NCBI GenBank assembly: GCA_047947115.1
Contig: CP170459.1
Coordinates: forward strand, 5,952,001-6,016,000
DNA: 64,000 nt
Source of the DNA: Verrucomicrobiota bacterium
GTDB taxonomy: Bacteria; Verrucomicrobiota; Verrucomicrobiia; Limisphaerales; AAA164-E04
Direction of reading: 5' to 3'
Shown: positions 44,086 through 60,013 of the stretch, piece after piece
Numbering within the stretch: the stretch's first letter is position 1
Layout of the letters: each line of letters begins with the position of its first letter
Program-made: the position numbers and the translations under genes
The notes under the pieces: generated by a model
The model's database searches: none
Seen by the model: the letters and a program-made list of their open reading frames with translations, nothing else
Told to the model about the DNA's origin: nothing

Positions 44086-44308
44086 TTATATAAATATTGA
44101 GCATTTTGATATTGCTATCAAAAGCGCATTCTTAAAACTCTTGGTCTTCCGAAGAAAACCTCAAGGGCTCATGCTTAATCGCACAATTCAATTTTCAAAG
44201 AACGTGTTCCTGTTGCCAGGAACTTCAAAGTCACTAGAGGCCAAAAAACCGAGAGCCGAGTTCTGCTTACTCGCATCGGCTTCTCAGTCGCCTCTTCGTT
44301 ACCGGCTG

Positions 44309-44599: not shown

Positions 44600-44631
44600 A
44601 AAAAAAAGGTCCCATCAAAGGGACCTTTTTT
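44600..44631 (-). terminator. intrinsic (bidirectional-type) terminator closing the redox operon
   Basis: AAAAAAAGGTCCC-atcaaa-GGGACCTTTTTT. Confidence 0.85.
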
Positions 44632-44742: not shown

Positions 44743-46305
44743 TCAATCCGGCGATGCTAATGCACCGGTTGGGCATGAATCGACGGCATCTTTTGCCAAA
44801 TTTCCTAAACCAGCTTCCAGGTTTTTTTCCAAAGAAACGCCTGCGGTCACCTCAAACCCACGTCCCACAAAGGTGAATCCATATTTCTCACCACCATCCT
44901 GCGTTACTCGAACGCAAATCCCACATTTGACACACTTACCGGGCTCATAAACAGCCACGGTACTTTGGTCCATTTTGTTGAATGAGGGCCGATCGTTGAC
45001 TTTGAATTGCATTTGCTTGGCACCGTATTCGTGGCTGTATTCACGCAAACTGCAATCTTTGTTAGCGCGACAGTCACAATGCAAGCAACGACCACTCTCC
45101 TCGTCGGCTTGTTCGGGTGTGATGTCTTTTTCTTTGGCCGCCCGAATCTCCGGGTGAGCATGAGGCGCCGCATGCTTGACGAACAGATCCAGCTCACCTT
45201 CCTGGAGCCTCCCCATCATGTGGTTGTAAATGTCCTCTTCTCCTTGCATGGGTTGCTCCCTCAAACATTGATCCACACAGGCAGCCATTGATTTGGCATT
45301 TTGAATGACTTTCAGAAGGTTCATTTCCGCATTAGCAACCCCACCGCCTGCAAACACGGCTTGTATATTGGTCATATGAGTCTTTCGGTCCGCCTTGACC
45401 CCTTTCTTGGCCAATTCCAGATTCCAGGCTTCAAGTGACTGAGCTGCAGACTCTCCACAAGCGATTACGACCGCATCGAAATGCTCCTTTATTTCCTGGA
45501 ACGCGTCCGCGGTATCAACCCCATGTTTTGTCCGAAATTCCACCCCCATGTTGTTGAGTAAAGAGATTTCCCCATCCAAAGCCCAATCCGGTATTGTCCC
45601 GTTTGTCACTTCTTCCTGAATGGATCCCCCTAATTTATCAGCCTTATCCAGGACCACGCATTGATGCCCCCGCAAGGTCAGGTAATAAGCCGATGCCAGA
45701 CCCGTGGGGCCTCCACCAATGATGCAGACTTTTTTGCCCGTTGGCTCAGCACAAGGTATGGCGTATGCCTTTCCTTCGCGCAAGTGCCAATCAGCAACGT
45801 GACGCGACATGTGTTGAATGGCAATTGGATCATCATGCAATCCGCGGCGACATCCTTTTTCGCAGGGCGCATGGCACATTCGCTCAAGAATACTTGCAAG
45901 CGCCACGTCAGATCGAACGGTCAGGACGGCATCTTCCATCCGGTTGTCACCCACTTCTCTCAACATCTTTGGAATTTCCGAATGCACGGCGCAAAGACGT
46001 TGGCACGGGGCTTCACAATCTCCCACATGCTCACTGAGCAAAAGTTCCAGAGTTGATTTACGGAATTCCCGGATGCTTTCGGCCTGTGTTTCGATATCCA
46101 TTCCATCAGCTACTTTGGCAGAACACGCAGGCATGGTCCTTCCAGACGCATTGTCTTTCACCACACAAATCATACAAGAGGTGAAATATTCGTGGCCTTC
46201 CTTATAGCAGAGTACGGGGATCTCGATCCCAACTTTGGCTGCAGCCTGAATGATGGTTAAATCCTCGTCCGTTTCGATTTCCTGGTTATCGATTTTAAAT
46301 TTCAT
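44743..46305 (-). CDS. NuoG/HydA-like Fe-S subunit with an inserted, shortened GltD-like flavoprotein domain
   Basis: [2Fe-2S] C-x10-C-x2-C-x13-C; EHVGDCEAPC..C; CHAPCEKGC; IIGGGPTG; RCLHCDC-x5-C; CVKCGIC...CPTGAL. Confidence 0.85.
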   Translation of the reverse strand: MKFKIDNQEIETDEDLTIIQAAAKVGIEIPVLCYKEGHEYFTSCMICVVKDNASGRTMPACSAKVADGMDIETQAESIREFRKSTLELLLSEHVGDCEAPCQRLCAVHSEIPKMLREVGDNRMEDAVLTVRSDVALASILERMCHAPCEKGCRRGLHDDPIAIQHMSRHVADWHLREGKAYAIPCAEPTGKKVCIIGGGPTGLASAYYLTLRGHQCVVLDKADKLGGSIQEEVTNGTIPDWALDGEISLLNNMGVEFRTKHGVDTADAFQEIKEHFDAVVIACGESAAQSLEAWNLELAKKGVKADRKTHMTNIQAVFAGGGVANAEMNLLKVIQNAKSMAACVDQCLREQPMQGEEDIYNHMMGRLQEGELDLFVKHAAPHAHPEIRAAKEKDITPEQADEESGRCLHCDCRANKDCSLREYSHEYGAKQMQFKVNDRPSFNKMDQSTVAVYEPGKCVKCGICVRVTQDGGEKYGFTFVGRGFEVTAGVSLEKNLEAGLGNLAKDAVDSCPTGALASPD

Positions 46306-48707
46306 AGGTCGATGACATGAATGGCGTCAACAGGACACACCTGAAGACAGATATCGCATCGGGTACACGCCGGCTCTTCAATAAGGTGCCGATGATACGG
46401 GTTCATGGGGATGGCATCCACGGGACAGTGCTGAGCACAGCGCGTGCATCCGATACACGATTCATTGATGTAATACTGGGTGAGTTTCGTGCATTTTTTT
46501 GCCGGGCATCGGCCTTGCAAGTGGGCTTCGTATTCATCCCGGTAATATTTCAAACTGGAAAGAACAGGATTTGGGGCCGTTTTGCCCAGACCACACAAGC
46601 TGCCATCCACAGTGATCCCTGCGAGTGCCTCGAGTGTTTCAAGATCCCCTTTCCGACCGCCCCCTTCGCAGAGTCGGTCGAGGATCTCCTTCATGCGTTT
46701 AGTGCCTACGCGGCAATGGGTGCATTTACCACAGGATTCATCCTGGGTGAACTCCATGAAATATCTCGCAATATCCACCATGCAGTCGGTTTCATCCAGC
46801 ACCACCATCCCCCCTGACCCCATGATGGCCCCTACGGACCGCAAAGCTTCGTAGTCGACAGGTGTGTGGCATAGATTGGCGGGAACACAACCTCCCGAAG
46901 GCCCGCCCATCAGCACAGCCTTGAGCTTGCGTCCATTTGGAACACCTCCCCCGATATCGTTGACGATTTCGCTGATAGACATGCCCATCGGCACTTCCAC
47001 CAAACCGCCCCGGTTGATCTTACCTGCCAATGCAAAGGTTTTAGTTCCTTTACATTTTTCGGTGCCCCGCACAGAGAATGCTTTGGCACCGTTGCGCATT
47101 AGCCAAGGAATGGTGGCGAGTGTTTCCACATTATTGATGAGTGTGGGCTTGCCCCACAAACCGGACTGAGCGGGGAACGGGGGTCTGAATCTCGGCATTC
47201 CCCTTCCTCCCTCAATGGCAGAAATCATGGCGGTTTCTTCACCGCAAACAAAGGCTCCCGCACCTTCGATTACACGCATTTTAAGGCTTAAAGAACTTCC
47301 GAAAATATTCTCTCCCAGGTAGCCCTTTTCCTCACAAATCTTGATGGCATGACGAATGCGTTCTGTAGCCAGGGGATACTCCGCCCGGATGTAGAATATT
47401 CCCTCATTAGCTCCGATGGCATGAGCGGCTATCGCCATTCCTTCAATAACTCGGTAAGGGAAGGATTCCAGGATCATACGGTCCATGAATGCGCCGGGGT
47501 CCCCTTCGTCGCCATTACAAATGACGTATTTCTTATCACCTGTCGCCGCCCGGGTGAATTTCCACTTTAATCCGGTGGAAAAACCAGCCCCCCCCCTGCC
47601 TCGTAGCCCGCTGGTTTCAATTTCCTTGATGACTTCCTCTGAATCTTCTTTTTCCAGAACGGACTTTAGGGCTTTGAACCCGTCATGAGCCTCGTATTCG
47701 TCGAAACTGGTCGGATTCAATTCCCCCAAATGCTCGGTGACCAAGTGGAATTGAGCTTTGGATCGATCCGCCTCGGCTCCGTGCCGTACATCGTCCGCAT
47801 AACGTGTCGGGGGAGCCCATGCTTCATCCGTAAAAAACTTTTCAAGCCACCCCATCACTCTGGCTCCGGCCTGTTTCAAAAGCCCTGCAGACCGAAAATG
47901 ACTGAGCAGAATTTCGCCCGCCTGATCCGCTTTAACCTTACCGTAACGGTATTTTCGATCCCGGTAAACAACCACCTCCACCAAAGGGGTTTCGTATGAC
48001 AAACCGGTACACCCCACTTGTTTGATACTCACTGGCAGGGCGTTCGAACGGATGGACTGCTTCAACGAGTCATACACCTTGTCGGTCCCACCTGCCACGC
48101 AACTGGAGCACAAACAAATACGCACTTCGCCTGTTGCCTGCTCTATTTTGACACCGTCGTCGTCATTAATATCGGACTGCTTCTTGGTAAGAGCTTTGAA
48201 ATCCTTGATAAGATCGGGCACTTTCCAGGGCTCCACATCGCCATAAATGACATCATCAATCTGCACCACCGGGGCCAACATGCAGCACCCCAAACAGGCC
48301 ACTTTTTCGGCTGTAAACTCGTTCTTAGGGTCAGTATGGCCTTTGGCCGGAATTTTCAATTCTGTTCGAAAGGTTTCATCCAAGATATTGGCACCACTGA
48401 CATGGCAAGCTGTCCCGACGCATGTCTTGACGATATGTTTGCCCACCGGGTAATGCCTGAACTGGGAATAGAAAGTGGACACACCAGTGACGGCGTCCGG
48501 AGTAATTTCCGAGACTTCACAAAGTCTTTCCAGAGCCGGTTTAGGAAGGTAGTTCCATTTCTTTTGAATGGCCTGCAGCAAAGGGATCAGGTGCTCGGGT
48601 TGATCTCCGATTTCCTTGACCCATTGATCCACCAAGGTGAGATCAATCTGTGGCGTGGTCGAGATGTCGACCGGCTTGGTCTGAGGATCTTGAACTAAAG
48701 TTTCCAT
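46302..48707 (-). CDS. fused NuoE-NuoF (HydC-HydB/BfuC-BfuB-like) NAD(H)-binding FMN/Fe-S protein
   Basis: CVGTAC...CLGCC; CLCSSC...GCTG; GLRGRGGAGF; NGDEGDPGAFMDR; GAGAFVCGEETA; GGPSGG; ESCGKCTHCR...SLCGLG; H-x4-C-x4-C; two C-terminal CxxCxxCxxxCP. Confidence 0.92.
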   Translation of the reverse strand: METLVQDPQTKPVDISTTPQIDLTLVDQWVKEIGDQPEHLIPLLQAIQKKWNYLPKPALERLCEVSEITPDAVTGVSTFYSQFRHYPVGKHIVKTCVGTACHVSGANILDETFRTELKIPAKGHTDPKNEFTAEKVACLGCCMLAPVVQIDDVIYGDVEPWKVPDLIKDFKALTKKQSDINDDDGVKIEQATGEVRICLCSSCVAGGTDKVYDSLKQSIRSNALPVSIKQVGCTGLSYETPLVEVVVYRDRKYRYGKVKADQAGEILLSHFRSAGLLKQAGARVMGWLEKFFTDEAWAPPTRYADDVRHGAEADRSKAQFHLVTEHLGELNPTSFDEYEAHDGFKALKSVLEKEDSEEVIKEIETSGLRGRGGAGFSTGLKWKFTRAATGDKKYVICNGDEGDPGAFMDRMILESFPYRVIEGMAIAAHAIGANEGIFYIRAEYPLATERIRHAIKICEEKGYLGENIFGSSLSLKMRVIEGAGAFVCGEETAMISAIEGGRGMPRFRPPFPAQSGLWGKPTLINNVETLATIPWLMRNGAKAFSVRGTEKCKGTKTFALAGKINRGGLVEVPMGMSISEIVNDIGGGVPNGRKLKAVLMGGPSGGCVPANLCHTPVDYEALRSVGAIMGSGGMVVLDETDCMVDIARYFMEFTQDESCGKCTHCRVGTKRMKEILDRLCEGGGRKGDLETLEALAGITVDGSLCGLGKTAPNPVLSSLKYYRDEYEAHLQGRCPAKKCTKLTQYYINESCIGCTRCAQHCPVDAIPMNPYHRHLIEEPACTRCDICLQVCPVDAIHVIDL

Positions 48708-48709
48708 AG

Positions 48710-50470
48710 TTAACCCTGAATACAGAATAAGTGGGATTCGCCTCGGACGATCATCCCGTTTTTAAATAAGGCCGGGGTACTCAAAACAGGCTCTCCCATG
48801 AAAGAATCCATGTTGCCTTTGAATGCTTCTCCCGTCGTTTCGAACACATGTGCGTAGCCGCCTCGATCGAACAGATACACCTTCTGCCCAATCCTCACCG
48901 GAGAAGAATAAAAACCGTGATCGGTCACCTCATACCACATCTCTTCCCCGTTATCGGCGTTCAGGCAGACGATTCCACCGTCACCCATCCCACCGAAATA
49001 CAAATTGTTGTGAACGATAGGAGAGGATATTCCGGGAGTGGTATCGCGATTCGACCAAAGCACCTCCTGAGTGGAAATATCAACAGCAGCAACATGCACG
49101 TAGTCAGCGGCAATATACAGGCGGCCATTGGCATAGTAGGGCGAAGGAGCAATTTCGCCTCCTTCCAGACACTCAATTTCCCAGATAAGCGCCCCATCAT
49201 CAACATTGTACAACGACAAGGTAGGTTCGGATGCCAGGGCCATAACGGACTTTCCTTCCCATTCGAATAATAGAGGAGAAGCCCAGGAAGCACCGTTGGT
49301 GCGATCCTTTTTCCAGCGCTCCTTGCCGGTGGCAGCATCATACGCAGCAACAAAACTGTGCTCTTCACGGTCCAACTGGATCAACACCAGATCACCATAG
49401 ACCTGAGGAGACGATGAATAACCGTAAGGATTGACCGGATTCCCCATGTGCACCGTCCACTTGAGTTCACCGTCCAACGTCACACCAGCAAGATCTCCAT
49501 TGGCGTATACGGCATAAACCATTGCACCATTACATGCCAATGTTGGGGCAGCGTAACCAGTATCCTCGGTAACTTCAGGAGGTTCCCCGGATTCTTTAGT
49601 GGTTGGGACTCCAGTTCGCCAAAGCTGTTTACCATCCTCCAAAGTGAAGCAAGCCACTTCACGTTTTTCTTCGTCAGCGCCGGTAAGGAATATTTTATCC
49701 TCCCAGATGATAGGAGAATTGAAGCCGACAAGGTCCAATTCGACTTTCCAGTGAATGCCATCCCCGGTTTCCCCATTCCAGGATTCAGGAAGTTGGACTT
49801 CATCCATCCAAGCATCATATCTTCCCAGGAATACCGCCCAATTCTGTCGGATCTGTTCGGAAGTGGCGAATTGGATGGAAGGAGCGGCGGGGGTTTGATC
49901 CGCAAATTCGGTTTCGCTGCTGGCGAGTGACGGGGGGCCATCCAGTTCTGCGTTTTCGGAAGGCACGGGCTCATCCAATGGACTTTTCCAAGGCAAGGCC
50001 AAGGACAAGGCGAACCCTGCCAGACAAAGCCCGGTGACGGTCACGGATTTTCTTGCCCACCTTGCCTGCTCGCGTGGATCATCCTTGGGATCACTTGAAT
50101 CGGGAAAGGGATGGTTAGCCTCATATGCTTCGATCAATTTGAAGCAAGCGAGCATCACCGCAAGACTGCCAACCAGCAGGTAGATCCCACGGTGATTGAA
50201 TTCCTGACTGGCAAAGAAAGCCTTGCGACCCAGTTGGTCCATTTGCTGGATCTGTAAGCGTAACTCCTCATTGCGTGGATCCTGATTCAACTGCTCAATC
50301 AAAGCTTCCAGTGAAGCGGAATGGACGGGGTCGGAACGATTCAGCATCGCCCGGTTTGCGATCATCAGCACACAGGTCACCACAGCCAATACGGCGGAAA
50401 CCCATCCTAATATTTTGATTATCTTATATGCTGCTGAATTTCGGTCCTTCTCAAGAACAACCACTCTCAT
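48710..50470 (-). CDS. multi-TM-anchored PQQ-like beta-propeller protein
   Basis: Three N-terminal hydrophobic helices, then repeats such as SPIIWEDKIF, SSPQVYGD, ASPLL, G-x-x-x-W. Confidence 0.8.
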   Translation of the reverse strand: MRVVVLEKDRNSAAYKIIKILGWVSAVLAVVTCVLMIANRAMLNRSDPVHSASLEALIEQLNQDPRNEELRLQIQQMDQLGRKAFFASQEFNHRGIYLLVGSLAVMLACFKLIEAYEANHPFPDSSDPKDDPREQARWARKSVTVTGLCLAGFALSLALPWKSPLDEPVPSENAELDGPPSLASSETEFADQTPAAPSIQFATSEQIRQNWAVFLGRYDAWMDEVQLPESWNGETGDGIHWKVELDLVGFNSPIIWEDKIFLTGADEEKREVACFTLEDGKQLWRTGVPTTKESGEPPEVTEDTGYAAPTLACNGAMVYAVYANGDLAGVTLDGELKWTVHMGNPVNPYGYSSSPQVYGDLVLIQLDREEHSFVAAYDAATGKERWKKDRTNGASWASPLLFEWEGKSVMALASEPTLSLYNVDDGALIWEIECLEGGEIAPSPYYANGRLYIAADYVHVAAVDISTQEVLWSNRDTTPGISSPIVHNNLYFGGMGDGGIVCLNADNGEEMWYEVTDHGFYSSPVRIGQKVYLFDRGGYAHVFETTGEAFKGNMDSFMGEPVLSTPALFKNGMIVRGESHLFCIQG

Positions 50471-51870
50471 GACATCGTAACCTTTTCTTTCTTCCCAGAT
50501 TTTTCAGCCGGTGCCTGCGGTTGCATCAAAATTGCCTGAGAAGCTTCAAAGGCCGGAGTCCCCGGCACAAAATTTGGCCTGTGCATATCATCACTCGGGC
50601 AATAAGAACAACAGCGACCGCAGCTGTAGCAATCTGATTTGCGCACCTCATAGCCTACCTGGGTTCGTGATAAGGAGACATTGATCAGTTTCACCCCAAA
50701 AACCAAGCCAATAAAACCGCCAAGCAACCAACCGCCCGTGCTCATCTGTGAACGAATCTGTGCTGCTTTGCTGAACAAGTCCTCTTCAGTCTGACCTTTA
50801 GCTCGAAAAGTGTCCGACTCTATCGTTGTTGGCATATTAGAATCCTGCTTTTCCAGAACAATCTGTTCGGCCAAAGCAACCGTGCGGTGCTGCCTGCTCA
50901 AGGGTTCGGCCATACGGTAACCGATCCAACCACAAAGCAGAATCAACACAGGCACCATTACAAACAGGTAACCGAGACGATGGGCACCCGAATGGCGATC
51001 TTCCTTGGTCAAGCCGGCGTTGGGCTTGTCAATGGCGTCGAACGGACAGGATTCTTCGCACAAACGGCAGTCAATGCACACAGTTGGCGTGATGGATAAA
51101 TGCCACCTTGCGAAGCGAGACATCCAGCCCAGCAACACCCCGTAAGGACAGAAAAAGCGACAATATGGACGTGCTACGAACATTCCTACCAGAAGAAACC
51201 CGGCCCCCAGATAAAGGTAAGGAGCATGACCATTGAGACGGAAGAAACCAATGAAAGGGTCGTATTTACAAATCGCCATGCCGGCGTTGGTAGCCGAAAG
51301 TAGCACAGCGGTCCCCAAATAGATATAGGGAATCATGCTCAATCCGGTCGTCACTTTCTTGGGCAACTGAATGGGTTTGAGCACGACAAGATCCTGAATT
51401 GCCCCGAGGGCGCAGACCGATGCACAAAAAACACGTCCGAAGAAGAGTGAATAGGCAAGCGGCAGCAGGAAGAAAATCATCACTGTCACCGGAATGGCAT
51501 AGTGCACATTAAAAATGGACATGGTCACATTCTGAATCGATCCGATCGGGCAGACACAACCTTGCTTGTAGAACCCAAAATACCCCAAACTAAACAGCAT
51601 CAACCAGAAAAGGCCTTTCCGCGTTCTTAATTTGATAGCGAACAGGGCTCCGAGACTCAAAGTTGTAGCGAGCACCAGAACATCCACCCATTGCTGCCAC
51701 TCCTGAGTCGGTTCTGGGATCGTGGTTTCAGGGAATGTATATTCACTGACAAACTCCGGAGCTGGAAAGCGCATTTCGCCAGCTTGAGAAGACTCAGGCC
51801 ATCCCAAGTATACTCCGAGCAGGAGGACAGCAGCAAAAATCGCGTTCTTTTTGAGTAAGGAAAAAATCAT
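50467..51870 (-). CDS. integral-membrane 4Fe-4S protein (NapH/RdxA/NosR-C-terminal-like)
   Basis: CVCPIG, GRVFCASVCALG, RPYCRFFCPYG, CIDCRLCEESCP, CYSCGRCCSYCP; multiple TM helices. Confidence 0.85.
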   Translation of the reverse strand: MIFSLLKKNAIFAAVLLLGVYLGWPESSQAGEMRFPAPEFVSEYTFPETTIPEPTQEWQQWVDVLVLATTLSLGALFAIKLRTRKGLFWLMLFSLGYFGFYKQGCVCPIGSIQNVTMSIFNVHYAIPVTVMIFFLLPLAYSLFFGRVFCASVCALGAIQDLVVLKPIQLPKKVTTGLSMIPYIYLGTAVLLSATNAGMAICKYDPFIGFFRLNGHAPYLYLGAGFLLVGMFVARPYCRFFCPYGVLLGWMSRFARWHLSITPTVCIDCRLCEESCPFDAIDKPNAGLTKEDRHSGAHRLGYLFVMVPVLILLCGWIGYRMAEPLSRQHRTVALAEQIVLEKQDSNMPTTIESDTFRAKGQTEEDLFSKAAQIRSQMSTGGWLLGGFIGLVFGVKLINVSLSRTQVGYEVRKSDCYSCGRCCSYCPSDDMHRPNFVPGTPAFEASQAILMQPQAPAEKSGKKEKVTMS

Positions 51871-51891
51871 GTTGGCACCTGTTGGTAAATG

Positions 51892-52506
51892 TTACTCAGG
51901 GAGGTTGAACACATCTTCCATGGTTTCCTCGCGTTCTTTGTGCCTCAGCAGATAGGGTTTATCGGCCGGCAACCGCTCCCAGGCATCGGCCGGACACTGC
52001 ATGGCAATGGAACATTCATTGCAGTTCACACAGACGTTATGTCTGACCTGCAGGTAGAAGGAGGCATTCCCGAACATCTCGCAGGCTTTGACACATTTGG
52101 CGCAGCCGATGCAGTAATCTTCCAGAATGTTGTATTCCCAATAGGGATCTTCTACAAAAAGTCGTTCAATGGCGCCGGTGGGACACAGTTGATTTTCGGC
52201 GGCCGAGGTCAATTCAGGGGCGTTAGGGAGGAAATATCCAAAACACAAACGGCAGTAACCACAGATGGGATAAGACTGAACACACTTAACGGCGGATGGA
52301 GAAACGACACAATCGGTCGCGCAATGCTCACACTGAACGCACTTGTCAGGGTCAATCTGCCAAACCGTATTTTGTTCGCGCGCCCCAAATACGGACATGC
52401 CCCCCATCCAGCCAAGCGTTAATGCGGCACCTCTGCCGACAGCTTGTTTGATAAAATCAAAGCGATTTAATTGGTCCGACGATTCATTCGATTTTGCATC
52501 AGCCAT
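51892..52506 (-). CDS. multi-cluster 4Fe-4S ferredoxin with a Tat-like leader
   Basis: NRFDFIK plus hydrophobic stretch; CVQCEHCATDC, CGYCRLC, CPTGAI, CIGCAKCVKAC, CVNCNEC..CP. Confidence 0.85.
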   Translation of the reverse strand: MADAKSNESSDQLNRFDFIKQAVGRGAALTLGWMGGMSVFGAREQNTVWQIDPDKCVQCEHCATDCVVSPSAVKCVQSYPICGYCRLCFGYFLPNAPELTSAAENQLCPTGAIERLFVEDPYWEYNILEDYCIGCAKCVKACEMFGNASFYLQVRHNVCVNCNECSIAMQCPADAWERLPADKPYLLRHKEREETMEDVFNLPE

Positions 52507-52521
52507 AGTTTTTACTCCGTA

Positions 52522-54015
52522 TTATTGATTCAGTGTCAGATTGTTCGATCCCCCGGAAGCACCCGTACTCATATCCAGGCAAATCAGCATTTTGGAATCC
52601 CGCAAGATGAGTTTCCCCTCGACAATAGCCATGGGAGCCCAAGCGTCATGGCCGGGAGCCACTTCCGCGAACCCAAGTTTTTGAAAACCATCCAGACTGG
52701 CCTTGGCCATGGTCAATTCACCGTTGTCGTTGAGAATGTAAACTTTGTCATCAGCGATCATGTAAGGACCCAAACCGAATCGCTCGGTTTTGCCGCTGCT
52801 CCATACAACATTTCCCTCAAGATCCATGCAGACGAACTGGCCACGCATGGCTCCAGCGTCTTTGGGAAGAATGGAGAACAGATGGTTTTGGTAGAAAATG
52901 GGAGTCTGCTGTTCGCATGCAAATATCGTTTTATCCAGCTTGAATAGCGGCTTGGGAATGATCTTCCCCCCATCTTCCTTGAAGCCCATCATCATACTCC
53001 CCCCGCCATAACCGGCGGTAAAGAATACCTTGTCAGGCGCAACCCCGATAGGAGATGGCGACAACACATTTTGCGCCCAGTCCGAAGATTTCCAAAGGAG
53101 TTCACCCTTGGTGTCCGGCTCGGCAGATACGCCGACAACACCATTTTGTGAGCAGTAAACGTAGGTTTGCTTACCAAGAATCTCCATCTTCATGATGGAA
53201 GAGTGGGACATTTTCCATTGATCCTCATTGGTGGTGGTCCAATTGACCGCACCCGTCGCCAGATCCACGCCCATCATCATCGTGGTGCCGGAAGGTGCCA
53301 CAATGGCCTCATCTCCATCAATCAGAGGACACTGCCCCGTATACCATAGTGGAACGCTGGTTCCGTAATCCTTCACGAGGTCCAATCCCCAGACAAAATC
53401 ACCCGTCTTCGCCCGCACACACATGACAAAACAACGCGGCCCCATGGTGACCACGTAATCCTTGGTCAAAGCAGGAACCGTTCTTGAAACACCGTGATTA
53501 TTCTTGGTAGGGGCTTTGTAACGGCGTCGCCAGATCTCGATGCCGGTGTCCAGTGAGAAACACCTAAGAGTATCCCCTTGATATTCCTTATCGTAGTCCA
53601 GAATATAAACACAGCCCTGATCAACCGCCACACCTGCGTGCCCTTCGCCCATGGGAACGCTCCACAACTGAGTAGGACCTCCGGGAGGCCAGGTTTCAGA
53701 TAAGGGAACGGAGTCCTTGGCGATGTTATCAGCATCAGCTCCTCGAAATCCTTTCCATGTGCCTGCGGATGTGCCAAATTCACCTTCAAGCTTTTCAAAC
53801 TCACCCTCCAGATCCACGACAACTTCCGCCTTGGGCGCCGCTGCGACACCACCTACCGGCTTGTAAGTTCCGGCTGCGGTTTCCGCGGGAATATCGGTCA
53901 CGCGTGTTGTGATAGGAAGAGAGTTGCCCCCTTGAAACAGGAGGTACAAGAAACCCGCCGCAACCCCCGTTAAAAGGGTCATGGCATAAAAAGTCAGTTG
54001 TCGATCAGTAACCAT
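52522..54015 (-). CDS. membrane-anchored PQQ-like beta-propeller protein
   Basis: N-terminal TM helix; WKGFRG family motif; repeated G-x-x-x-W blades. Confidence 0.85.
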   Translation of the reverse strand: MVTDRQLTFYAMTLLTGVAAGFLYLLFQGGNSLPITTRVTDIPAETAAGTYKPVGGVAAAPKAEVVVDLEGEFEKLEGEFGTSAGTWKGFRGADADNIAKDSVPLSETWPPGGPTQLWSVPMGEGHAGVAVDQGCVYILDYDKEYQGDTLRCFSLDTGIEIWRRRYKAPTKNNHGVSRTVPALTKDYVVTMGPRCFVMCVRAKTGDFVWGLDLVKDYGTSVPLWYTGQCPLIDGDEAIVAPSGTTMMMGVDLATGAVNWTTTNEDQWKMSHSSIMKMEILGKQTYVYCSQNGVVGVSAEPDTKGELLWKSSDWAQNVLSPSPIGVAPDKVFFTAGYGGGSMMMGFKEDGGKIIPKPLFKLDKTIFACEQQTPIFYQNHLFSILPKDAGAMRGQFVCMDLEGNVVWSSGKTERFGLGPYMIADDKVYILNDNGELTMAKASLDGFQKLGFAEVAPGHDAWAPMAIVEGKLILRDSKMLICLDMSTGASGGSNNLTLNQ

Positions 54016-54170
54016 TTGAGATGCCTCACAATAATTCCCTTGATCTTTCTGTCAATGGGTTGAATGATGATAAGTAGTCATCGATTAAATGCCAACGTGA
54101 TTTACCTTGCCGTAACGGACGTGTGGTTGTAAAACAAAAAAGGGTCAATTAAAACCAAAAATGATTAGCC

Positions 54171-55220
54171 ATGGCCGATATTAAATCACTAGCTCGACGG
54201 GGTTTTCTTTCGGGAGCACTTGTAACCGCAGGAGCAGCAGTAGGATGGATGTTCCGTAAATCTCAGAACCCACGACGTCCGGCACGGCAGAATCAAAGCC
54301 TCGACAAGAGTATTTTTGAGTATGACGTGAGCGAATACATGCAAACCGATCCGGATTTGCACATGTATGAAGCCGGGAAGGAATTCAAAGTGGACTTTGA
54401 GCGGGTCAAATCGGTGCTCATGACCGACGATGGCGCACTGATCGTGGCAGGCGACCGTAGCATTAAAGGAGTTGGCCGAGATGGAACGACCCAGTTCGAA
54501 CTCCCCCTCAGTCGTCCTCCCCACTGCATGGCCATCACGGAGCAGGGTCTCCTATGGGTTGGGTTGGGGCGATACTGTGAAGCTTACGATTTAAAAACGC
54601 TCGATAAGAGATTTAAAACCGACCAGTTGGGTGAAAAGTCTTACATCACCTCCATGCAGGCTTACGAGGACAGGGTTTATGTAGCGGACGCCGGACTTCG
54701 AGAAATGGTGGTATTGAAAGCTGAGTCGGGAGAGGAACTGTTTCGATTTGGTAAAAAGACGGAAACCAATCCCGGTTTCAATGTTCCAAGCCCTTACTTT
54801 GATTTTGTTATTGGCAGGGACTTGAAACTGCATATTTCCAATCCCGGACTCCTTCGTGTGGAGACCTACACACTGAATGGTACATTCGAAAGCAGCTGGG
54901 GCAAACCCGGCATGAAGGCGGATGCGTTTTGTGGATGCTGTAATCCGGTTTACCTAACACAACTCACCAACGGGGATTTTGTCACCAGTGAAAAAGGCCT
55001 GGCCAGACTGCATGTCTATTCCGAACAAGGGGAATTCAAAGGCGTGGTGGCTGATCCGAACCACATGATACCTGATGAAGCTCTAGCAAAGAAAGCTTGC
55101 GGGGATTGCACCAAAGGCCACGGTTTTGACCTTGCTTCGGATGAATCCGGCAATGTGTTCGTGCTCGACCCCATCCAACAGAGCATTCGGGTTTTTGAAC
55201 CCTCACCCAAATTGACTTAA
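54171..55220 (+). CDS. Tat-signal NHL-like beta-propeller protein with an FCGCCNP motif
   Basis: ARRGFL plus hydrophobic helix; VYVADAG, FVTSEKG and VFVLD blades; FCGCCNP and CGDC. Confidence 0.7.
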   Translation: MADIKSLARRGFLSGALVTAGAAVGWMFRKSQNPRRPARQNQSLDKSIFEYDVSEYMQTDPDLHMYEAGKEFKVDFERVKSVLMTDDGALIVAGDRSIKGVGRDGTTQFELPLSRPPHCMAITEQGLLWVGLGRYCEAYDLKTLDKRFKTDQLGEKSYITSMQAYEDRVYVADAGLREMVVLKAESGEELFRFGKKTETNPGFNVPSPYFDFVIGRDLKLHISNPGLLRVETYTLNGTFESSWGKPGMKADAFCGCCNPVYLTQLTNGDFVTSEKGLARLHVYSEQGEFKGVVADPNHMIPDEALAKKACGDCTKGHGFDLASDESGNVFVLDPIQQSIRVFEPSPKLT

Positions 55221-55250
55221 CCAAAACTAACCGCTTAAAAACCGAATAGT

Positions 55251-55508
55251 ATGAGCGAAAACCAATCAAAAGCAGAAAACAGTCTCCCAAGACGCCAGTG
55301 GATAGCCAAGGCGGCTCGATCGGTCATCGTGACCGCCATGGCTGCATTCGGCCTTGGACAGGTTTACAAAGCGAGAAAACTGGCAAACGACCCTAATTGC
55401 GTGCGGCTCTACACCTGCAATGACTGTATCGAGTATGGCGGCTGCGAACTGGATAAGGCGGTCGCATTCCGAAAGACGCAGGATAAGCCGGCATCAAACA
55501 ACAGCTGA
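55251..55508 (+). CDS. small Tat-like-leader protein with a four-Cys motif
   Basis: PRRQWI plus hydrophobic helix; C-x5-C-x2-C-x5-C (CVRLYTCNDCIEYGGC). Confidence 0.7.
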   Translation: MSENQSKAENSLPRRQWIAKAARSVIVTAMAAFGLGQVYKARKLANDPNCVRLYTCNDCIEYGGCELDKAVAFRKTQDKPASNNS

Positions 55509-55525: not shown

Positions 55526-56608
55526 TCAAGCCCAAGCGCTTCTCAGCACATTGAGAAAATTGCCGTGAAACACCGAACGGATTTGATCCACCGTGTATCC
55601 TCTTTCTGCAAGGATGCTTTCCAGATTTTGGAGATCAGCGATGGATTGCACGTCTCCAGGACATTGTTCCGTACCATATCCCCCGTCCAGATCTGATCCG
55701 ATGCCGACGTGGTTCGCATTACCTGCCAGCTGACAAATATGATCGACGTGATCAATGATGCGTTCGAGTTTTAAATCTACTGATTGAGGGGTGGTGACCC
55801 CTCTCTCCCACCCGACGTGCATCATCCAGGCGTCAAATACCATTCCGATCACTCCGTTTCGTTGAATGATAGCCTTGAGCTGCTCATCATTGAGTTGTCG
55901 CTGGTGAGGTATGATGGATCGACAGTTGCAATGACTTGCCCAAACCGCTCCGCTGAAGATGTCCATAGCTTCCCAAAACGCCTCATCGGACAAGTGGGTG
56001 AGGTCCAGAATCATCCCCAAGCGATCCATTTCGCGCAGCAGATCTTTGCCCGCCTGGCTCAGCCCCCCTTCTGCTCCAGTCCCGGGAGCATACGTTCCCG
56101 GGCCATAATGCCCCAACCCCAGGGCCCGTAGCCCAGACTCGTAGCTGCGCTCCAGATAGGACAAATTCACCATCGAATCAGCCCCTTCCAGGCTGAGAAT
56201 GTAACCGATCGGAAGTTGGTTATGACTACCGGAATCGACACTTGATGAAAACCATTTACCAAGATGTTTCTCCAATTGGTCTAGATCGGTAATCTGCACC
56301 AATTCTCCCTGTTCCTCCATGACTCGATACCAAGCCAGTTGGGCCTGGGTCTGAGCCCAAGCCTGCTCGGGAGAATGCCAACCCGAGAGTTTGCTGCCCG
56401 GCTTGACATAGCGCGCGATCTGTGTTGCTACGCACAAACCAATCTGGCCTCTGCGCATTTCCGGAAAGGTCAACACACCATTGCCTCGATCCGGCTTATC
56501 GGTCCAGGCCGATTCCCGCTCTCTAACAGCCTCAACAGGCTGGCGGAGGTCACGATTCCACTCCATGGCATTCATAGCCAAATCCAGATGAGCATCAAGA
56601 AGGAACAT
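55526..56608 (-). CDS. membrane dipeptidase family (peptidase M19) amidohydrolase
   Basis: DAHLD, LSLEGAD, LDLTHL, ASHCN, GIGSDLDG. Confidence 0.9.
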   Translation of the reverse strand: MFLLDAHLDLAMNAMEWNRDLRQPVEAVRERESAWTDKPDRGNGVLTFPEMRRGQIGLCVATQIARYVKPGSKLSGWHSPEQAWAQTQAQLAWYRVMEEQGELVQITDLDQLEKHLGKWFSSSVDSGSHNQLPIGYILSLEGADSMVNLSYLERSYESGLRALGLGHYGPGTYAPGTGAEGGLSQAGKDLLREMDRLGMILDLTHLSDEAFWEAMDIFSGAVWASHCNCRSIIPHQRQLNDEQLKAIIQRNGVIGMVFDAWMMHVGWERGVTTPQSVDLKLERIIDHVDHICQLAGNANHVGIGSDLDGGYGTEQCPGDVQSIADLQNLESILAERGYTVDQIRSVFHGNFLNVLRSAWA

Positions 56609-57231
56609 GCGCGTAAGTTCACTCAAGCAACTTGGAAAGGTCAATGCGAATGTGATTCGACCAAAAAAGTTTCAAATGAAAATTCATTTCTTGCCACCAT
56701 CATCCATGGAAAGGACATGAACAAAAACCTGACCCCAATCATCCATATCTGCATGGACTCAAAGCGGATCAACTTCAATTAGGTAAAGGTAAAATCGGAC
56801 TTGTCGACCGCTTCATTGTTTTCAACCGCTCCGGGCACCTGAACAGGAGACCAGCCGGCATCCCTGCCCCCCCTTCACTCACAGAGGCTTTGCCGTCCAG
56901 CAATGCGTTCACCTCGCCAGTATCGACCAGGCCGCTCCGATCGAACCATTGATCGATTTTTTCGCCGAAATGATCAGCAGCAGAATGCAAAAACATCAGA
57001 TCATCCTAAGAGGAAGCACCTGGGAGCTTGATGTTTGCAAGCAGGCATGCAAAAAACAAAAGGATTCTTGGCTCTCACAGTACGGTGACAGCTCGCAAAA
57101 ACCGGATTTTTAGATATGATCCTCCCTTTGTCATAGGTATGATTAACCGGAGGGGTGATAATCCGAAAAACAGTAGCCAACTATGAAAAAATTGAAAGAG
57201 AACTATCCTTGGGAGCTCAAAGGCACCATCA

Positions 57232-58419
57232 CTAGGGAAGCCTGCCAAATTTCTTGAGAAGTCCCATCACTTGATCAACAGGAAGTCGATACACGGTGTT
57301 GTGATTGATCCCGGTCATTGTTTCAGCAGCCACCAAGGCATTAATGACCGATTCCTCCACGGAATGAACAGTGGACTGAAAAAACGGATCCAATTGGTCA
57401 TTATCCAGCATACCAACCTGGCGCACACCATTTTGAGCTGCTCCTCCCAAAGGTGCAGTGGAAAATGCAAGGAACAAATCTCCACTGGAATTGGCTCCAA
57501 ACCCCCCGGTACGACCTATTCCCAATCCCGCACGGCGTGCCACTCGTTTCAGTTGATGTGGAAGTAAAGGCGCGTCGGTTGCAATGATGACGATGATGGA
57601 ATGACCGGACCCGATTGGTTCCAAACCGTTCATTACCATTTCACAGCCATCAATCAGATGCCCCAACCTCACTCCGCCAATTGTAAGATCTTCACGTTTC
57701 CCATAATTTGCCTGCACCAGTGTGCCAAGAGTATAGCCATTCTCCAGCACACGGGAAGATGTTCCGATGCCCGCCTTGAATCGGTGGCAGACCATCCCGG
57801 TCCCTCCCCCTACGTTCCCTTCGGTAACCGCCCCCCCCTTGGCGTCATTCAATGCCTGAAAAACGTGTTCCTGCCGAACATGATGCCCCTGAATATCATT
57901 CAACCGCCCATCCCAGGTTTCTGCAACCACCGGCAGAGACGCCCAACCAACCGCATCGTCGGCGTCGTGATATTTGGTCTTGCGCCGCCAAAATATACTG
58001 GCCTCATACACCGCCCCCACGCTGTGTGTGTTGGTCAGCAGAACAGGCTCCTCGAGAAGGCCAGACTCTTCGACCCAGGTCGTTCCGGTCATTTCACCGT
58101 TTCCATTCAAGGTTTCAAAAGCGGCGAACACAGGCTCGAAATGTTTGCCTCTTGGTAGAATGGCAGTCACCCCCGTCCGAACAGGTCCCTCTCCAATGAC
58201 CAATTCGCCATTCCCCATGATCAAGGTACAATGACCGACTTGCACACCTGCCACATCGGTGATGGCATTGAGTTGCCCGGGAGTTCCCTCAAAAGGGATG
58301 CCAAGGTCGCGGGCCCTATCCGCGGCAGTGGAAACCAGGCAAACCCCAGCAACCGCAACAGCAGAAAACCATCGCACATACCTACGCCAACCACGGATGT
58401 TTACCTTCATGAACTGCAT
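57232..58419 (-). CDS. DmpA-like aminopeptidase (P1/S58 family) with signal peptide
   Basis: NAITDVAGV, RTGVTAILP, NGNGEMTG, EGNVGGGTGM, SIIVIIATDAP, SSGDLFLAFST. Start approximate. Confidence 0.9.
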   Translation of the reverse strand: MQFMKVNIRGWRRYVRWFSAVAVAGVCLVSTAADRARDLGIPFEGTPGQLNAITDVAGVQVGHCTLIMGNGELVIGEGPVRTGVTAILPRGKHFEPVFAAFETLNGNGEMTGTTWVEESGLLEEPVLLTNTHSVGAVYEASIFWRRKTKYHDADDAVGWASLPVVAETWDGRLNDIQGHHVRQEHVFQALNDAKGGAVTEGNVGGGTGMVCHRFKAGIGTSSRVLENGYTLGTLVQANYGKREDLTIGGVRLGHLIDGCEMVMNGLEPIGSGHSIIVIIATDAPLLPHQLKRVARRAGLGIGRTGGFGANSSGDLFLAFSTAPLGGAAQNGVRQVGMLDNDQLDPFFQSTVHSVEESVINALVAAETMTGINHNTVYRLPVDQVMGLLKKFGRLP

Positions 58420-58525
58420 CCCTCCACTCTGCGAAGCCAGAAACGATTTGGCAAGAACGACAGACCGAGCCCTCAGAACTCGACCGACCTGTCTGATCCA
58501 TCGGACCCGAAAGCCCCCCGACCTG

Positions 58526-60013
58526 TCAAACACCACTCAAAGAATCACGCAGGTCCTTCTTGAGAATCTTGCCGGTTGCATTGCGTGGAAGCGCATCCAT
58601 GAAGTGGATGTGACGCGGCACTTTGAACGAAGCCAACTCTGATTTCAGGAAGTTGATCAGAGCGCTTTTATCCGGTTCATGCTCTTCATCCAGAGCAACA
58701 AACGCCACGGGTTGCTCACCTTTCCTTTCATCCTTCAATCCAACCACCGCCGCTTCCTTAACCCCTTCAAACCGGTAAATCAACTCTTCGATTTCTCTCG
58801 GGTAAACATTGATACCATTGACCAGAAGCATGTCCTTCTTGCGATCCGTGATAAACAAGTAGCCATCCTCGTCTGCATATCCCATATCACCTGTTTTCAA
58901 CCAGTTATCCTGCAAAGTTTCCCCAGTGGCATCCGGGCGATTCCAATACCCCATCATCACATTGCCACCTTTCACCCAAAGCTCGCCCGATTCACCAGCA
59001 GGCAAGGGATTGCCATCGTTATCCATGATCGCGACGGAAACGTCGTGCACGGGCAACCCGATTGATCCGGCTTTCCAGGGACCGTCCACCGGGTTCAACG
59101 TCACCACCGGACTGGCTTCACTTAATCCGTATCCTTCGATGAGAGGCACGTTGGACTTGGCATTAAAGCGGTTCAGGACTTCCACCGGCAGGGGCGCCGC
59201 CCCGCTGATACAAAGCCGCAAAGGCAGTTTCGGAAGATCCGCAGACGCAAAGGCCCGATACAACTGCGGAATGGCAGGCATCAAGGTAGCCTCGTGAGTG
59301 ATGATTTCCTTGAGAATATTTTTGGGAGGATTGAGGGACTTGATCAACACGATGGATCCCCCCACCGTCATCGGCAGCAGAATACCGACCGTCATCATGA
59401 AACTGTGAAACATAGGCAAAAGCAACGCCACTCGATCAAGCTCGGTCACCTTCATGGTCACCTCGCAGCTACCGACATTGTGCAGCAGGTTCCCATGGCT
59501 CAACATGGCCCCCTTGGGGCGACCGGTGGTCCCGCTGGTATAAATAATCACGGCCAGATCCTGCTCCTCACTTACATGATCCTCCTCGACGGCCCGCTCC
59601 ACGGAAACCTCACACGTGCCAAGTGAATCCGCCTGAAGGAGCTTGAGGGGGCTGAGATTGGATTGAATCTTTTCCGCAGATGCTCTCAAGGTTTCATCCA
59701 CAAACAGTGCCTTCACTCCGGCGTCTTCCAAAATGTATTGAGTCTCGGAAGATGTCAGAAAATTATTGATAGGCACCACCACCCCGCCGGCTCGCAGGAT
59801 ACCAAACAGAATGGCCACGAACTCGGGGGCGTTTTTCATCCAAATCGCCACCCGATCCCCCGGTTGAACCCCCAGGTCGTGCAACAATTGATGGCGCACA
59901 AACTCGGACTGCCGGAACAGATTTTCGTAAGGTATTTGAGATTCTCCCCAGTAGATCGCAGGCTTCTGCGGGTGTTTGTCGACAGAAGCAACAAAAGCAT
60001 TTGCCAAATTCAT
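58526..60013 (-). CDS. long-chain fatty-acid--CoA ligase
   Basis: YTSGTTGRPKG, EGYGLSE, TGD, DRKKD, PRNATGKI. Confidence 0.92.
   Translation of the reverse strand: MNLANAFVASVDKHPQKPAIYWGESQIPYENLFRQSEFVRHQLLHDLGVQPGDRVAIWMKNAPEFVAILFGILRAGGVVVPINNFLTSSETQYILEDAGVKALFVDETLRASAEKIQSNLSPLKLLQADSLGTCEVSVERAVEEDHVSEEQDLAVIIYTSGTTGRPKGAMLSHGNLLHNVGSCEVTMKVTELDRVALLLPMFHSFMMTVGILLPMTVGGSIVLIKSLNPPKNILKEIITHEATLMPAIPQLYRAFASADLPKLPLRLCISGAAPLPVEVLNRFNAKSNVPLIEGYGLSEASPVVTLNPVDGPWKAGSIGLPVHDVSVAIMDNDGNPLPAGESGELWVKGGNVMMGYWNRPDATGETLQDNWLKTGDMGYADEDGYLFITDRKKDMLLVNGINVYPREIEELIYRFEGVKEAAVVGLKDERKGEQPVAFVALDEEHEPDKSALINFLKSELASFKVPRHIHFMDALPRNATGKILKKDLRDSLSGV

Follow-up and report, generated by a model that had tools for sequence, protein, structure and literature searches.

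Here we report on a redox gene cluster in a 64,000-nt stretch of DNA from a Verrucomicrobiota bacterium (GCA_047947115.1, CP170459.1; this whole stretch is called the window, and coordinates are window positions unless stated otherwise). The cluster encodes a flavoprotein core, whose sequence places it within the electron-bifurcating Bfu family but not in Nfn-Bfu, together with a membrane iron-sulfur (Fe-S) protein, a polyferredoxin and several beta-propellers, and this gene set is kept together across about ten bacterial phyla. Its Fe-S and propeller genes (the wire) and a set of ATP-binding cassette (ABC) and propeller genes form a real, widespread and apparently undescribed system. With moderate confidence, we read the wire as an outward conduit for electrons from NADH and ferredoxin that would serve an envelope machine handling lipids.

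Six minus-strand genes lie in series, separated by recomputed gaps of 15, 21, -4, 2 and -4 bp. Gene order, gaps and domain calls agree with a preliminary description of this locus, drawn from the sequence alone. Upstream lies the divergent pair of twin-arginine, Cys-motif genes that it had also pointed out; both carry twin-arginine (RR) motifs. The features are as follows (ORF, open reading frame; aa, amino acids; TM, transmembrane).

44600-44631, minus strand: terminator-like hairpin with T-run, between the redox operon and an rRNA operon (read from sequence)
44743-46305, minus strand: BfuA (NuoG/GltD-like), NfnA-derived, 520 aa (ORF, PDB matches, ligand columns)
46302-48707, minus strand: BfuC-BfuB (NuoE-NuoF) fusion, 801 aa (ORF, Pfam, PDB matches)
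48710-50470, minus strand: three-TM protein with C-terminal PQQ_2-type beta-propeller, 586 aa (Pfam, hydropathy)
50467-51870, minus strand: NapH/NosR-like membrane Fe-S protein, 467 aa (NCBIfam matches below cut-off)
51892-52506, minus strand: NapG-like polyferredoxin, 204 aa (alignment)
52522-54015, minus strand: propeller 1, a membrane-anchored PQQ_2-type beta-propeller, 497 aa (Pfam)
54016-54170, no strand: divergent intergenic region, 155 bp (gap between ORFs)
54171-55220, plus strand: NHL six-bladed propeller with twin-arginine signal, 349 aa (alignment, fold model)
55251-55508, plus strand: small twin-arginine four-Cys protein, 85 aa (homologue alignment)

A genome scan with the ferredoxin returned at least 567 relatives, and its homologues formed 4541 clusters; locus counts are from the best 80 of the 567. 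Among these 80, the nearest relatives were metagenome-assembled genomes (MAGs) of Verrucomicrobiota with 70-80% identity, and the loci were spread over Verrucomicrobiota, Lentisphaeria, Planctomycetota, Bacteroidota, KSB1, Calditrichota, Sumerlaeota, Aminicenantes, Firestonebacteria, Neomarinimicrobiota and one Eubacteriales MAG. When at least 8 kb of downstream sequence was available (n = 55), the membrane protein and the TM propeller were found in all 55 loci, the BfuC-BfuB fusion (BfuCB) in 54 and BfuA in 49. When at least 3.5 kb was available upstream (n = 61), propeller 1 was found in 56 loci and the NHL gene in 60. All seven larger genes were present in 36 of the 43 loci having both flanks, which bears out the co-occurrence across phyla that the preliminary description had proposed as its main test. 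Since this synteny is conserved across phyla, a chance neighbourhood is excluded. The usual gene order is propeller 1, NHL, small protein, ferredoxin, membrane protein, TM propeller, BfuCB and BfuA, and the divergent NHL pair of the window is a local rearrangement.

The flavoprotein BfuCB gave its best PDB matches with 9bov_B, 8oh5_B and 9n5u_B. It carries cluster C1, the flavin mononucleotide (FMN)/NAD site, cluster B1, the B2-site ligands and clusters B3/B4, and the ligands are invariant in 53-54 of 54 aligned rows. The B2-site residues C642, C680, H729, C734 and C739, the conserved His included, are spaced like C438, C476, H525, C531 and C536 in PMC9304861. The residues A406, M408 and F486 (Ala/Met near FMN, Phe instead of Tyr) were found in 54 of 54 rows, and the complex I NuoF of the source genome has Tyr where BfuCB has Phe. 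Ala/Met near FMN and a Phe in what is probably this position are features of bifurcating members. At the B5 site, the window protein has C198/C200/C203/C233 plus Ser237, and C202/C237 occur in 43-44 of 54 rows; B5 is a Zn site in a bifurcating NfnABC (PMC11829005). In a BfuB tree, the 66 cluster rows (two of them identical in sequence) formed one clade against 7 controls with a support of 0.858, one split control being omitted. In the unlinked controls, the NADPH motif is present (8/8), BfuC and BfuB are encoded by two genes, and neither propellers nor NapH-like proteins were seen among the neighbours.

For BfuA, the best PDB matches were 9bov_A, 9n5u_A and 8oh5_C, with an internal gap. It retains the ligands of clusters A1, A2, A3 (His) and A6, those of A7 apart from the Lys, plus a flavin adenine dinucleotide (FAD) motif, in keeping with the FAD-A7-A6-A3-A2-A1 electron path of NfnA (PMC11829005). 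Missing are the NADPH domain (~140 residues), cluster A4 and the Fdh-like domain, nor does the sequence contain an H-cluster or pterin domain. All 48 cluster copies have this deletion of the NADPH domain; the one other row of the alignment, the 49th, is an unlinked GltD-like protein in which the domain is present. The A7 Lys is found in 35 of 42 BfuA proteins and is Ser167 in the window; at the FAD site, GxGxxG, an acidic residue and G284 are retained, and the GD-motif Asp occurs in 3 of 49 rows only. Moreover, BfuA forms a natural reduction series, from 520 aa to 444 aa (eroded FAD domain), 327-343 aa (no FAD domain) and ~220 aa fused to BfuCB (A1-A2-A3 only). The FAD domain is lost in L087, L147, L149 and four fusions, and clusters A1-A2-A3 are the only BfuA clusters common to every variant. 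The NADPH domain deleted in every cluster copy and the FAD domain lost in some lineages argue that BfuA would act as an electron relay rather than as a catalyst, and against NfnABC. Thus, the HydABC/Bfu-type core of the preliminary description stands in so far as the BfuBC motifs are intact and no catalytic domain is present, and has to be amended for a BfuA without NADPH domain and with an FAD domain that is dispensable in some lineages. We also considered a general mechanism in which the FAD face binds a new third substrate, and rejected it in view of the several lineages without an FAD domain.

The closest known systems are NfnABC/StnABC (9bov, 9n5u, 8oh5; PMC11829005, PMC9304861), with which the cluster shares the BfuBC core (FMN, B1, C1, B3, B4 and B2-site ligands) and a BfuA with NfnL-like insertion and A7-A6-A3-A2-A1 ligands (the A7 Lys and the FAD site being variable). 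In contrast to these systems, BfuC is here fused to BfuB, the NADPH domain, A4 and the Fdh-like domain are deleted, the FAD domain is lost in some lineages, and the core is encoded with membrane and periplasmic proteins. The predicted Nuo-Bfu and Mbh-Bfu systems (PMC9304861) likewise have a Bfu core within a membrane redox gene cluster, whereas here a NapH-like partner is found and antiporter-like or hydrogenase subunits are not. The main text of PMC9304861, in its accessible part, lists no propeller- or PQQ-linked Bfu type and leaves 17 BfuB clades unassigned; the cluster BfuB may belong to one of these.

The membrane Fe-S protein matches the NCBIfam NapH/NosR models far under cut-off (TIGR02163, 40.2 versus 213 bits). 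Hydropathy and the positive-inside rule predict a signal peptide and about seven helices, which would place the invariant C105, C107 and C201 on the outer face, and two CX3C motifs and a split 2[4Fe-4S] domain on the inner side. Fifteen Cys are invariant in 60 of 60 proteins, as are the two CX3C(P) and two ferredoxin motifs; the first CX3C motif is CX3CA in the window protein and CX3CP in 55 of 60. Alignment of the polyferredoxin indicates 16 invariant Cys and four predicted clusters. Fold and profile searches gave no solved relative of the ferredoxin or of the membrane protein, only generic ferredoxin matches. An exported polyferredoxin (here putatively so) and a membrane protein with two CX3C(P) and two ferredoxin motifs are also the parts of NapG/NapH, MauM/MauN, NosG/NosH, NosR and RdhC. 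The pair described here differs from these families by an extra signal peptide, the three invariant outer-face Cys, a ferredoxin domain split by a helical hairpin, scores below the family cut-off, and clusters with no NapA, NosZ, MADH or dehalogenase gene. It presumably works like NapGH while standing outside that family's definition. NapH and NosR themselves function in electron transfer to periplasmic enzymes (PMC5928378).

The ferredoxin N-terminus resembles a twin-arginine translocation (Tat) signal, and the window copy has R-F-D-F in place of the twin arginine. As to the exported ferredoxin to which the NAD(H)/ferredoxin module had been proposed to be wired, RR is present in 67 of 77 parsed homologues, but the motif is broken in the window copy, a putatively exported protein. 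In 7/7 loci with a ferredoxin devoid of RR, the motif is carried by the NHL protein, versus 6/68 other loci. These 7 loci are one clade and so count as one event, and one further locus is a fusion parsed without either RR. Such a swap of RR between the ferredoxin and the NHL protein is consistent with joint export. At one locus (L091, 12878-13507), the small Cys protein is apparently fused to the ferredoxin N-terminus.

Propeller 1 has conserved polar residues (H174, R178, W224, C229, H271 and Q369 across 61 copies). The PQQ_2-type propellers score far below the curated quinoprotein and BamB models (TIGR03075, 46.7 versus 480; TIGR03300, 70 versus 285). In the NHL protein, alignment shows that the vicinal pair Cys256-Cys257 is invariant (F-x-G-C-C-N-P); its alignment-based model reached a pLDDT (predicted local distance difference test) of 91, and the fold matches were NHL domains. 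No metalloenzyme match to it was found in the PDB, only generic NHL/propeller matches, and a protein atlas search gave hypothetical NHL and PQQ_2 clusters only. Homologues of the small Cys protein were called in 44 of 80 loci, usually between the NHL and ferredoxin genes.

The source genome is 95.8% complete, and a search of it found none of the NiFe and FeFe hydrogenase catalytic families; its four molybdopterin-family matches all lie outside the locus. This agrees with the earlier claim that the locus has no hydrogenase or molybdopterin catalytic subunit. A catalytic subunit encoded elsewhere was considered and, one molybdopterin-family frame at genome position 773126 aside, is unsupported, given the lack of a hydrogenase family and a formate-dehydrogenase-like locus with its own NuoEF-type gene. 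The genome also encodes complex I and what appear, on inspection of the sequence, to be alternative complex III, Rnf and pyruvate:ferredoxin oxidoreductase (PFOR)-like genes. Two further frames of this genome are a second NapH-like polyferredoxin of 677 aa (G000:C1 4672198-4674231) and a molybdopterin-family frame of 1364 aa (G000:C1 773126-774463).

Related loci also carry additional propellers and genes for a GT4 glycosyltransferase, an ABC ATPase and an FtsX/MacB permease of 1100 aa. In many of them there is, besides, a terpene module, which consists of a cyclase with DxDD resembling squalene-hopene cyclase (SHC-like), a DUF116-polyprenyl synthase, a prenyltransferase-fold protein, a radical SAM enzyme and an Fe-S protein. 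In the source genome, the orthologues of these partners lie at separate sites outside the window:

G000:C1 4920084-4922612: propeller and GT4
G000:C1 2183824-2187878: ABC ATPase and permease
G000:C1 3622836-3625815: radical SAM enzyme and DUF116-polyprenyl synthase
G000:C1 520600-522417: SHC-like cyclase
G000:C1 4607461-4608333: prenyltransferase-fold protein
G000:C1 5481443-5483795: CobW GTPase and Fe-S proteins

The association was quantified in two genome samples. Among 201 genomes of the source phylum, the ferredoxin was found in 20 and the NHL gene in 15, all ferredoxin-positive. The ABC permease was present in 20/20 ferredoxin-positive genomes (16 by search, 4 from loci), the DUF116-polyprenyl synthase in 18/20 (20 overall) and GT4 in 14/20. 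The SHC-like cyclase was present in 17/20 (19 overall), a figure weakened by related genomes that are not independent, by physical linkage in many cases and by the fact that 8 of the 17 shared genomes contributed rows to the query alignment. Co-occurrence persisted within families (1/32, 2/17, 1/5). The second, independent sample comprised 151 genomes of Planctomycetota (the phylum of G238), with the ferredoxin in 17, the cyclase in 33 and the permease in 42. Here, the permease was present in 16/17 ferredoxin-positive genomes (4.7 expected) and in 32/33 cyclase genomes, and the cyclase in 13/17 ferredoxin genomes. Over both samples, the type VII ABC permease accompanies the wire in 36/37 genomes and the SHC-like cyclase in 30/37; the permease was also present in 10/10 tested wire-bearing genomes without terpene module. 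The propellers do co-occur with the wire as the preliminary description had it, but they are not its sole partner: the tightest one is the type VII ABC transporter, encoded elsewhere in the genome, with GT4, more propellers and the terpene module. In two genomes (G304, G284), the wire, GT4, terpene and ABC genes form one co-directional string of ~26 kb. These strings (G304:C11 17050-43090, loci L149 and L150; G284:C3, L147 and L148) are the best reference loci for the whole system and include an FAD-less BfuA, a B12-radical SAM enzyme, the prenyltransferase-fold protein, the ABC pair and propellers.

The transporter resembles the type VII ABC systems LolCDE, MacAB and YbbAP-TesA (PMC12646458) in combining an ATPase and a duplicated FtsX/MacB permease with periplasmic partners; here, in contrast, the partners are propellers, and the ABC genes lie outside the window. 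The cyclase resembles the orphan class II SHC-like terpene cyclases (PMC7306690; PMC12324236) in its DxDD, its neighbouring polyprenyl synthase and its range over the Planctomycetes-Verrucomicrobia-Chlamydiae (PVC) and Fibrobacteres-Chlorobi-Bacteroidetes (FCB) groups. Its identity with that clade is suggested by these three features rather than by a tree. The accessible parts of these two papers treat the clade's function as undemonstrated, remark only on the neighbouring polyprenyl synthase, and make no link to a redox wire, an ABC transporter or propellers; fusion of DUF116 to polyprenyl synthetase has been described (PMC5898192). Each of the three modules (wire, ABC, terpene) is also found without the others. 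The hub is therefore made up of the ABC transporter and the propellers, to which the wire and the terpene module are each an optional addition. We know of no type VII ABC system coupled to an Fe-S wire.

For the outward conduit, gene content and cofactor ligands suggest the following course, in which contacts, direction, bifurcation and substrate are our proposals. Cytoplasmic NADH, probably with reduced ferredoxin, would donate to BfuCB (FMN/NAD site, C1, B1, B3, B4), and electrons would leave at the His-ligated A3 branch of BfuA or at B3/B4. NuoG N5, which passes electrons to NuoI, serves as the model for an A3 exit. They would enter the NapH-like protein at its cytoplasmic 2[4Fe-4S] domain and move on to the CX3C pair and the outer-face three-Cys site, from where the four-cluster ferredoxin may hand them over to the NHL propeller at its two vicinal Cys. 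The conduit as a whole would be haem-free, built of Fe-S clusters, and cross the inner membrane to the periplasmic propellers. The reductant would be spent on cargo or enzymes of the type VII ABC-propeller machine; the cargo would be a lipid, for which a cyclised isoprenoid is predicted in many lineages. A more far-reaching version, possible but rather doubtful, joins about 18 genes into one PVC/FCB envelope system: a new Bfu type would confurcate NADH and ferredoxin, and an Fe-S wire free of haem and independent of quinone would bring the low-potential electrons to the periplasm. The SHC-like cyclase would make a new polycyclic isoprenoid, glycosylated in its final form, which the type VII ABC transporter would present to propeller enzymes for completion. 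If true, this would mean a new membrane lipid, a possible molecular fossil, linked to a new electron-export route.

Several observations weigh against the outward conduit and its lipid-handling machine. Apart from the broken twin arginine (R-F) of the window ferredoxin and the limits of the cyclase counts, a motif scan of the source genome found no small soluble 2[4Fe-4S] ferredoxin; the same scan found what are presumably Rnf subunits and two PFOR-like ORFs. GT4 is missing in 6/20 ferredoxin-positive genomes of the source phylum. The terpene module is absent from 19/44 wire-bearing genomes of mixed completeness, and the isoprenoid therefore cannot be a universal target. In Planctomycetota, 26 of 42 ABC-bearing genomes lack the wire, 20 of these having the cyclase, and G001 and G123 have ABC and GT4 without wire; the ABC task is therefore not always dependent on the conduit. 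In one genome (G197), no propeller gene adjoins the ferredoxin and membrane genes, and the Bfu pair lies elsewhere. Moreover, the Bfu core is replaceable, because G026 and G176 have the membrane module without a cluster-type BfuCB and L058 has no Bfu core adjoining. NapH, finally, is proposed to draw on quinol rather than on a cytoplasmic donor (PMC5928378).

This last point leads to a quinone-linked respiratory module, in which the NapG/NapH-like pair exchanges with the quinone pool, Bfu couples NADH oxidation to ferredoxin and quinone as in Fix/EtfABCX, and the propellers are the terminal reductase for an external acceptor. Proposed quinol dehydrogenase activity of NapH-family membrane segments (PMC5928378), the predicted membrane-bound Nuo-Bfu and Mbh-Bfu (PMC9304861), the module without its own Bfu in G026 and G176 and a ferredoxin-membrane pair adjoining a multihaem cytochrome (L084) speak for it; we nevertheless consider it unlikely, as it leaves the near-obligate ABC permease (36/37) and the terpene and GT4 genes unexplained and the cluster encodes no catalytic subunit of the Mo, Cu or haem kind. 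Inward flow likewise fails to account for the ABC, GT4 and terpene partners; here, propellers would oxidise a low-potential periplasmic substrate (e.g., an aldose) and the wire would feed a Bfu bifurcating to NAD+ and ferredoxin. This is the usual direction of NfnABC (PMC11829005), and PQQ_2-type folds with conserved polar residues would suit it. The hosts come mostly from lineages known to degrade polysaccharides. However, the quinoprotein models are far under cut-off and the known NapH/NosR relatives send electrons outward, which makes inward flow quite improbable in our view. A search for PqqC gave no match in the source genome, and its control likewise matched nowhere.

We give a similarly low probability to a maturation of metal centres as in nos, with the ABC transporter as a NosDFY-like assembly factor, the wire as an activator of NosR/NosGH type and the vicinal Cys of a propeller holding a metal cluster. 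The parts logic is the same (propeller, ABC, NapH/NosR-like protein), invariant Cys occur in the NHL protein, the third propeller and the GT4 N-terminus, and a CobW-type GTPase stands alongside some clusters; yet the permease is of FtsX/MacB type and not NosY, the NHL protein has no metalloenzyme match in the PDB, and the terpene module finds no place. An ordinary soluble NfnABC/Stn transhydrogenase beside unrelated envelope genes would explain why the best structural matches are NfnA/NfnB/Stn chains, but it is largely refuted and very improbable, given the NADPH domain missing in 48/48, the separate clade and the synteny across phyla. The outward conduit thus remains our preferred reading.

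Literature searches, with subscription papers outside their coverage, found no paper describing the wire system, in line with the earlier statement that no characterised complex of such composition was known to its author; the accessible portions of PMC11406978, PMC13689815 and bioRxiv 2025.11.21.689855 make no mention of propellers. With this system, the Bfu bifurcating family would gain a type wired to membrane and periplasm, along with a natural BfuA deletion series that would show which clusters suffice. The system also offers a handle on the product and role of the orphan SHC-like cyclases, which are here associated with propellers, an electron supply, a glycosyltransferase and an ABC transporter. 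Hosts in culture include one with the terpene module (Gaoshiqia sediminis, L018) and one without it (Perlabentimonas gracilis, L062).

At the downstream end of the operon, direct reading of the sequence revealed a 6-bp stem (44625-44608) followed by eight T (44607-44600), where the preliminary description had placed a terminator; a consensus terminator scan did not list this hairpin. The 155-bp divergent region is a putative promoter region, and a scan for sigma-70-like promoters gave 7 sites versus 15 expected from shuffles, i.e., fewer than chance, so that no promoter is assigned. The locus is contained in 20 RNA-library runs; in the 4 examined, assembled contigs span several gene junctions (X1, 49566-54004 and 44749-47605; X3, 47893-52140), and these contigs, assembled without a DNA control, do not establish a single transcript, its strand or its level. 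Contig breaks near 54.0-54.2 kb were excluded, since the loose ends there resemble adapters.

Directly downstream, on the same strand, lies a complete rRNA operon (16S, two tRNAs, 23S and 5S; 38800-44100), with the 16S rRNA gene at 42521-44084. On the other side, an M19 membrane dipeptidase gene, seen in 0/80 related loci, converges on the small Cys gene with a 17-bp gap and is accompanied by an S58 peptidase (55526-58536). Elsewhere, paralogous NHL-ferredoxin-membrane trios without Bfu occur at L095 (7797-11072) and L096 (2840-6353), and the cytochrome adjoining the ferredoxin-membrane pair at L084 (332-11472) is 909 aa long. The wire-less locus L123 (G001:C7, 6477-19774) has ABC and GT4 flanked by an AMP-binding (CoA-ligase-like) ligase and a Trp-halogenase-like flavoprotein; its other flanking genes encode a radical SAM enzyme of HemN type, an iron alcohol dehydrogenase and a propeller. 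Insertions recur in loci of Bacteroidota (e.g., L012, L017, L021, L059, L065 and L070) between BfuCB and BfuA and at other junctions, the inserted cargo being 23S-rRNA-IVP (four-helix bundle) genes, SGNH esterases and others.

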